The notes below the pieces were generated by a model, which saw nothing but the letters and a program-made list of their open reading frames with translations, did no database searches and was not told the origin of the DNA. Positions 50,641 to 52,177 of a stretch of DNA of 64,000 nucleotides are shown piece after piece. The position numbers and the translations under genes were made by a program. Position 1 is the stretch's first letter. Each line of letters begins with the position of its first letter. The stretch is from a bacterium HR35 (GTDB lineage: Bacteria > Patescibacteriota > Minisyncoccia > UBA6257 > HR35), in contig BEIL01000001.1 in assembly GCA_002898235.1 (NCBI GenBank), positions 125,041 through 189,040 of the forward strand. The letters are read 5' to 3'.

Positions 50641-52177
<1,537 letters not shown>

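Follow-up and report, generated by a model that had tools for sequence, protein, structure and literature searches.

Replacement of the anti-Shine-Dalgarno core in the 16S rRNA of a probably thermophilic Parcubacterium, with candidate leaderless gene starts and a putative hairpin at the prfB frameshift site

We show that the window, by which we mean the whole 64,000-nucleotide stretch of DNA analysed here, carries a 16S rRNA gene in which the anti-Shine-Dalgarno (aSD) core CCUCC is replaced by AUUCU, and that the genes around it lack Shine-Dalgarno (SD) motifs at their starts. We are confident that this gene is best explained as the single, functional-looking 16S of a thermophilic Parcubacterium (Patescibacteria/CPR; GTDB Paceibacteria, NCBI Minisyncoccia), that its lineage lost the aSD, and that initiation there is SD-independent. 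The core of this finding is already published at clade level: the aSD motif was found in only 48% of Parcubacteria, and the subgroup that misses it overlaps with the group lacking uL1 (Tsurumaki et al. 2022, RNA 28:1041, PMC9297842). The preliminary description of this DNA had treated the altered tail as novel, which it is not, and its interpretation is partly supported by our results. The remaining interest lies in two extensions that look unpublished, namely promoter-proximal gene starts and a cis hairpin at the prfB frameshift site. It is conceivable, at somewhat less than an even chance in our estimate, that the jobs of SD:aSD pairing have been taken over by leaderless or near-leaderless initiation together with this hairpin.

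The minus strand of the window from 52176 to 50640 is a full-length bacterial 16S rRNA gene (Rfam RF00177: 1429.5 bits, where the gathering score is 50; model positions 1-1533, untruncated), with the following features in and around it.

50640..52176, minus strand: 16S rRNA gene, from the RF00177 covariance model
52291..52319, minus strand: rRNA promoter TTGACT-17 nt-TATAAT, matching 11/12 sigma-70 consensus positions
50562..50605, minus strand: trailer (3') arm of a long pre-16S processing stem, complementary to the leader at 52185..52228
50652..50678, minus strand: helix 45, GGUAUCGCUAGCGGAAGCUGGCGAUGG, with its GGAA tetraloop intact, from the covariance-model alignment and a sequence check
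50639..50651, minus strand: non-canonical 3' tail ACCAAUUCUGUUU, from the covariance-model alignment
50158..50550, minus strand: response-regulator gene starting 90 nt past the 16S tail, with no SD (ctaaaaactataaagATG)

A comparison of the whole window with Rfam identified this gene as the only rRNA, with no 23S, 5S or spacer tRNA linked to it within the window. The trailer and leader form a processing stem of about 40 bp, with a cofolding energy of -86.6 kcal/mol. Because it has both this stem and a sigma-70 promoter of near-consensus sequence, the gene looks expressed and processed rather than decayed. It is flanked by an aspS-like gene and a small ORF on one side and by the response-regulator gene on the other, and the order 16S-response regulator is also found in a relative, L010/L019 (MAG FK_Sedi_B_Bin.466), where prfB comes directly after them.

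The genes beyond the response regulator are extremely tightly packed at the tRNA-Val locus (50105-50180, minus strand): the response-regulator ORF extends 23 nt into the tRNA gene on the same strand, and a convergent class II aminoacyl-tRNA synthetase ORF (48778-50133, plus strand) overlaps it by 29 nt on the opposite strand. Elsewhere in the window, a large serine recombinase (Resolvase, Recombinase and Zn ribbon domains; 59809-60984) lies about 570 nt from tRNA-Asn (61554-61626), with a 160-aa ORF in between; an integrated element may have its boundary here. Pfam gave no match for the ORFs at 46918-48771 (plus strand, 617 aa), 24990-26453 (minus strand, 487 aa) and 52320-52766 (minus strand, 148 aa). 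One further gene bears on the lifestyle of the organism.

33201..36692, plus strand: reverse gyrase (helicase, Toprim and topoisomerase IA), from Pfam

Since it is accompanied by an rRNA whose G+C content is 57%, against about 27% for the genome (composition profile), the gene content and base composition indicate that the organism is a thermophile. The tRNAs of the genome are G+C-rich as well.

To place the 3' terminus, the last 340 nt of the 16S were realigned separately against the covariance model. Helix 45 pairs normally and carries its GGAA loop; in the 13 unpaired positions of the tail, the family consensus GAUcACCUCCUUu is replaced by GACCAAUUCUGUU, with the posterior probability at '*' throughout. 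Thus, ACCAAUUCUGUUU stands where the canonical tail is AUCACCUCCUUU, and the aSD core CCUCC becomes AUUCU at 50647..50643. This alignment bears out the preliminary description, which had assigned helix 45 to the same place without a shift, had correctly given the coordinates 50641-50665, where the plus strand is complementary to the tail and to the 3' side of helix 45, and had read CCUCC as AUUCU. We also considered a canonical tail hidden behind an insertion and rejected it, given that the 90 nt separating the tail from the next gene contain no CCUCC and that the trailer forms a processing stem instead.

The tail could in principle be a misassembly, the gene a pseudogene, or the copy a minority one, with a canonical rrs elsewhere doing the work, and the fact that only one 64-kb window of the genome is in view leaves some room for such a reading. 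However, tail and trailer are identical in two independent Logan assemblies, DRR101367 and DRR101362, which were located through the protein encoded by the downstream response-regulator gene; the gene is full-length, with a strong promoter and a processing stem; and SDs are absent across the window. A tail of the same type is, moreover, common to 12 species, as described below, and in the complete genome of a relative, AP024681.1, the helix-45 pattern matches only once, at a 16S with the tail AAUAAAUCU, which argues against a hidden canonical copy. We give this alternative next to no probability.

The relatives were found with a pattern in which helix 45 alone was fixed and the tail left free, applied to a single genome of each GTDB species. 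The pattern matched 14 loci, from 12 Patescibacteria/Parcubacteria MAGs and two Firmicutes; the former include the genomes KatS3mg094, KatS3mg096 and KatS3mg097, which we take to be from the Katase hot spring. Both Firmicutes carry ATCACCTCCTTT, whereas the tails of 12/12 Patescibacteria are altered (ACCAATTCTG, ACCAAATCTG, ACCAATTCTA, ACTAATTCTG, ACCACTTCTG, AGCATATCTA, ACCAATTCCT and AATAAATCTT), so that the comparison with related genomes proposed in the preliminary description also came out in its favour. When the 13 tails, including that of the window, are aligned, their consensus is GG followed by ACCAAuUCUgUUUAAAA. Agreement reaches at least 11/13 at most of the first 17 tail positions, falls to 8/13 at positions 6 and 10, and decays beyond. 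Because conservation covers the first 17 positions and then collapses, the alignment indicates that the tail was replaced and then held as a conserved ACCAAuUCUgUUUAAAA, rather than randomised or scrambled.

The assignment of the organism to the Parcubacteria follows from the deposited labels of its nearest 16S and RF2 relatives, which are Parcubacteria, Patescibacteria or Minisyncoccia MAGs. One contig in the comparison, L004 (JAUQQL010000009.1), was deposited as part of a 'Thermodesulfobacteriota bacterium' MAG; it has a Parcubacteria-type 16S end and a trailer nearly identical to that of the window, and is probably mis-binned. The window itself offers a further point of contact with the published aSD-lacking group.

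40186..41733, minus strand: nusG, rplK (uL11) and tmk, from Pfam

Here, the usual slot of rplA (uL1) after rplK is occupied by the thymidylate kinase gene tmk, and rplA is absent from its usual locus, a statement that covers the window only. This gene order fits the Parcubacteria group lacking both uL1 and the aSD (PMC9297842).

The GAUCACCUCC tail is also a protein-binding site, being bound by Era in Era-RNA structures. A 2025 survey found Paceibacteria to be mostly without Era (PMC12641178), and our literature search indicates that bS21 is often absent in Parcubacteria. The loss of tail-binding partners may thus have relaxed the constraint on the tail.

The second claim of the preliminary description, that genes lack SD motifs upstream, was borne out as well. 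We took as gene starts the first ATG of 58 long ORFs in the window. In the region from -20 to -1, GGAGG and GAGG each occur at 0/58 starts and GGAG and AGGA at 1/58 each, all four counts lying below the rates found before internal ATGs. Upstream of these starts A and U dominate, with G making up only 2-12% at positions -12 to -4, and A is enriched at -1 to -4 and at -11. The canonical tail would pair with the region from -22 to -3 at -0.92 kcal/mol, as compared with -0.93 for shuffled sequences and -2.50 before internal ATGs. Similarly, GGAGG precedes 0/70 gene starts in 12 relatives.

Could the genes instead have followed the tail, so that CCAAUUCUG acts as a changed anti-SD, with complementary motifs (AGAAU, GAAUUGG) upstream of genes and AGAA as its partner at prfB? 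The conservation of the tail in 13 species, which implies some selection on it, and the presence of AGAA within the prfB stimulator region are what such a co-evolved SD would lead one to expect. Nevertheless, the tail-complementary pentamers AGAAT, GAATT, CAGAA, AATTG and ATTGG each precede only 0-2/58 genes, fewer than the internal controls, and the duplex energy of the actual tail with the region from -22 to -3 (-1.62 kcal/mol) is no better than that of shuffled sequences (-1.91; p = 0.72), internal ATGs reaching -3.05. The AGAA:UUCU pairing that the preliminary description had suggested at prfB fares no better: KatS3mg094 keeps the UUCU tail but has GGAGGGC and no AGAA at the site, about 25% of all 20-nt stretches of this DNA contain AGAA, and the GGAG(AAC) in question is the 3' arm of an mRNA hairpin. 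A second potential contact between the prfB site and the tail, UUGG:CCAA, was rejected as chance, as it comprises only 4 bp, is non-contiguous with AGAA and is absent in L019 and L046. The idea of a co-evolved SD is therefore largely refuted, and we regard it as very improbable. Since the aSD is lost and the new tail pairs with nothing upstream of genes, we conclude, with the same confidence as for the overall explanation, that start codons are selected independently of SD pairing.

What is found upstream of many starts is a -10-like hexamer, defined here by at least 5/6 matches to TATAAT with A2 and T6 required. Such a hexamer lies at a spacer of 6-9 nt before the ATG in 19/58 genes, compared with 3.0 expected from positions farther upstream (binomial p = 5e-11), and six of the 19 boxes bear a TGn extension against a TG background of 2.8%. 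Boxes precede 13/32 operon-first genes (41%) and 6/26 operon-internal genes, a difference that is not significant, and in the relatives the box peaks at the same place (16/70 genes). Several divergent gene pairs have a box on each side.

2701..2757: divergent intergenic region of 57 nt, with TGGTAAAAT 7 nt before the ATG of 1558..2700 (minus strand) and TGATATAAT 9 nt before the ATG of 2758..4659 (plus strand)
6576..6615: divergent intergenic region of 40 nt, with TGATAAAAT 7 nt from one ATG and TGTTAAAAT 8 nt from the other
17403-17437: divergent intergenic region of 35 nt, with a box on each side
62342-62405: divergent intergenic region of 64 nt, with a box on each side

Because these pairs are only 35-64 nt apart and carry a box on each side, they have no room for 5' leaders, and the first of them appears to be an example of promoters placed for leaderless or near-leaderless mRNAs. 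Where divergent genes are separated by 17-40 nt (38752-38768, 17403-17437 and 6576-6615), the two promoters must overlap back to back. In a relative, L044, the prfB ORF0 is preceded by TGGTATAAT, 6 nt and then the ATG (about 345-360), and looks leaderless too. In the 'group C' genomes of GeneMarkS-2, leaderless genes are recognised by a Pribnow box placed 6-8 nt ahead of the start codon (bioRxiv 10.1101/193490), and it is this signature, a box near the start of operon-first genes, that we find in the window. Taken together, the position and sequence of the boxes suggest leaderless or near-leaderless mRNAs. As far as our literature searches show, such ATG-proximal boxes are new for these bacteria, no paper having been found that links leaderless mRNAs to the Patescibacteria clade.

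The same element could alternatively be read as an A/U-rich signal for the ribosome or S1, of the kind found in 'group B' of GeneMarkS-2, rather than as a promoter; initiation would then resemble that of Bacteroidia, on leadered mRNAs, after loss of the aSD. In this sense, it is relevant that the TAAAAT-like motif is also found ahead of operon-internal genes (6/26), that A is enriched at -1 to -4 and at -11, and that all genes of Bacteroides show an A-rich non-SD motif some 9 nt from their starts (bioRxiv 10.1101/193490). Three observations nonetheless make this reading, though a serious contender, the less likely one in our view: the motif shows the -10 pattern T-A---T with the TGn extension, leaders do not fit between the divergent pairs described above, and the spacing is the 6-8 nt of leaderless 'group C' genomes. 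Returning to leaderless initiation, we propose as the most likely route that many transcription units would yield mRNAs without a leader or with one of 1-3 nt, from an extended -10 element 6-9 nt before the ATG. Most operon-internal genes abut or overlap the previous stop (gaps of -50 to +12), which suggests translational coupling or re-initiation, and downstream genes would accordingly start at the preceding stop by one of these routes. In both cases, the start regions are A/U-rich and G-poor.

During elongation, the aSD has one classical use, the stimulation of the +1 frameshift of prfB, the gene encoding RF2, and this programmed frameshift is retained in the window.

10450..11461, plus strand: prfB (RF2) with a programmed +1 frameshift, ORF0 at 10450..10506 and ORF1 in the +1 frame at 10505-11461
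10477..10497, plus strand: perfect 9-bp hairpin GUUCUCCAA-UUU-UUGGAGAAC, from RNAfold

ORF0 begins with the ATG at 10450 and ends with CTT TGA at 10501-10506, with the RF2 body following in the +1 frame; for relatives of the ORF1 product, precomputed Pfam annotation shows the PCRF and RF-1 domains. The site reads UUG GAG AAC UAU CUU UGA G, and the GGAG that the preliminary description had noted upstream of it is present at 10491-10494. Rather than facing a 16S aSD, this SD-like element sits in the 3' arm of the hairpin and pairs in cis with a CUCC in the 5' arm. Between the end of the hairpin and the slippery CUU lie 3 nt, the E-site codon UAU, which is the same spacing as in the AGGGGG-UAU-CUU of E. 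coli. Its folding energy is -10.6 kcal/mol with a z-score of -4.4 (RNAfold), or -3.5 in an 81-nt context, and the hairpins of the window and its relatives together range from -10.6 to -13.1 kcal/mol with z-scores of -3.7 to -5.3. The corresponding upstream region of E. coli prfB folds at -12.2 kcal/mol with a z-score of only -1.8, and at the site of L028, a distant relative rich in G+C, the stem is weak and 6 bp long; in this very small comparison sample, neither fold is comparable to the hairpin of the window.

We compared 15 further prfB loci from relatives. Close relatives have the same stem, in which an A-U pair is changed to G.U in L025-27 and to G-C in L024, both synonymously. The group of KatS3mg094, BPJH, FMJZ and Ga0212093 has CCCUCCAA-UUU-UUGGAGGG before UGU UUU UGA, a stem that differs by two U-A to C-G double changes and in which the amino acids are altered on both arms. 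A third hairpin, UCUUCUA-UUUU-UAGAGGA, precedes C UGU CUU UGA in the MAG KM4337-23 (L009 and L046), whose tail is ACCACUUCUGUUU. In an alignment of 10 hairpin sequences, 96% of cells are paired, as compared with 27-65% for slid partners. Changes on both sides occur in three stem pairs, and the observed covariation score was reached by 0/500 shuffles, a signal that comprises about three independent events in nine distinct sequences within coding sequence.

The form of RF2 itself varies among the relatives. L040 and L041 have a full-length, un-shifted RF2. In L017 (BPJI01000001.1, KatS3mg096; 1201-1917) and L037 (701-1456), RF2 lies directly after gatB and has only 238-251 aa, starting about 10 residues before the SIYSGVGG motif, with the N-terminal domain and the frameshift site missing. 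In the close relative L020, whose RF2 is 79% identical, hairpin and CUU are unchanged, but UAA replaces UGA at the shift site (1089-1100); RF1 could read this stop too, which would weaken RF2-specific autoregulation.

Experiments on E. coli 70S ribosomes offer a precedent: a stable synthetic hairpin placed directly next to the E site stimulates the +1 shift at CUUUGA in the absence of RF2, reaching about 60% of the stimulation that an SD gives (Huang, Cho & Chang 2018, PMC6321510). It is tempting to propose that the natural hairpin would act likewise: the +1 shift would be kept without an aSD because GGAG would now be a hairpin arm ending where the SD:aSD helix would end, so that the 3' arm would be the ancestral SD-like element, the 5' arm a CUCC mimic of the lost 16S tail, and the hairpin would fill the vacant site of the SD helix beside the E site. 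From its sequence and position, the hairpin probably stimulates the frameshift, and we place the replacement of an mRNA:rRNA helix by an mRNA:mRNA helix just short of an even chance. No natural hairpin stimulator of this kind was found in our literature searches, and as far as these go, the cis hairpin at prfB appears new.

A serious competing account, to which we give a little less than even odds, holds that the hairpin is not a stimulator at all and could be a relic, a coding coincidence of a conserved LQFLE peptide, or a terminator or attenuator, with shifting proceeding unaided as in SD-less Flavobacteriales. Indeed, in several clades SD-ASD pairing is dispensable for the prfB shift (Naeem et al. 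2024, PMC10798248, which does not mention a hairpin), and the aSD-less L019, with the tail AGCAUAUCU, has a prfB shift site without an evident hairpin. The folding of the upstream region in E. coli can be cited on the same side, despite its modest z-score, as can the U-rich sequence after the hairpin and the palindrome that a terminator scan flags on the minus strand. We rejected a terminator, since the palindrome is flagged on the non-coding strand only and a terminator inside ORF0 makes little sense. A mere coincidence or relic is harder to reconcile with compensatory changes that keep the pairing, whether synonymous (CAA/TTG to CAG/CTG) or amino-acid-changing (V..N to T..G), with three sequence-distinct hairpins at one place, and with a stem whose end meets the E-site codon, like that of the synthetic stimulator (PMC6321510). 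The stimulatory hairpin, if real, would be the natural counterpart of that synthetic element, a case in which an rRNA:mRNA helix turned into an mRNA:mRNA helix.

These genomes offer a clean natural system, being small, complete and thermophilic, with an aSD that is absent rather than hidden. They open the questions of how start codons are chosen without any SD helix, where the evidence points to leaderless mRNAs, and of how the aSD-dependent recoding signal of prfB adapts, where it points to a cis hairpin. On the practical side, gene finders and expression designs that assume SDs will mis-set starts in this aSD-less group.

The closest known system is the aSD-lacking group of Parcubacteria (PMC9297842), with which the window shares the clade label, the absence of CCTCCT at the 16S 3' end and the missing rplA after rplK. 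That study reports a detection rate only and leaves the replacement tail, its conservation, SD usage, promoters and prfB undescribed; the window adds such details for a thermophilic member with reverse gyrase. More widely, an altered aSD is as rare as the preliminary description had held: 128 of 20,648 taxids are without CCUCCU, mostly certain Bacteroidetes, Mycoplasma and Carsonella, and these aSD-less organisms are without SDs (Amin et al. 2018, PMC6107228). Like Chryseobacterium, Elizabethkingia, Riemerella, Blattabacterium, some Mycoplasma and Carsonella (Lim et al. 2012; PMC6107228), the organism described here has an intact helix 45 followed by a tail of about 13 nt without CCUCC(U), and like other aSD-less bacteria it shows no SD enrichment and no compensating or variant motif, with a trait that is shared by relatives and thus clade-wise rather than sporadic. 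The differences are that those bacteria belong to other phyla and that the replacement tail described here is itself shared by 13 species, with strong conservation across 17 nt.

The 'SD-blind' Bacteroidia (Jha et al. 2021, PMC7797042; PMC10798248) are similar in having depleted SDs, A-rich and unstructured starts and a retained prfB frameshift. They keep a canonical aSD, which is sequestered by bS21, bS18 and bS6, whereas here the sequence itself is gone. With the 'group C' Actinobacteria and Deinococcus (bioRxiv 10.1101/193490), the window shares a -10 box 6-9 nt upstream of the start, at a frequency among operon-first genes (41%) within the 25-50% reported; those bacteria, however, have retained the aSD and rely on SDs for leadered and internal genes, whereas no SDs are found here and the leaderless state is inferred from sequence. 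Finally, the prfB site resembles E. coli prfB and its synthetic hairpin derivative (PMC6321510) in the short ORF0 ending in CUU UGA, although ORF0 ends in UUU UGA in some relatives, and in a duplex that reaches up to the E-site codon, stopping 3 nt short of the slippery codon. It differs from E. coli prfB in the partners of that duplex, which there are mRNA and 16S rRNA and in the window are two strands of the mRNA itself, with no 16S partner.
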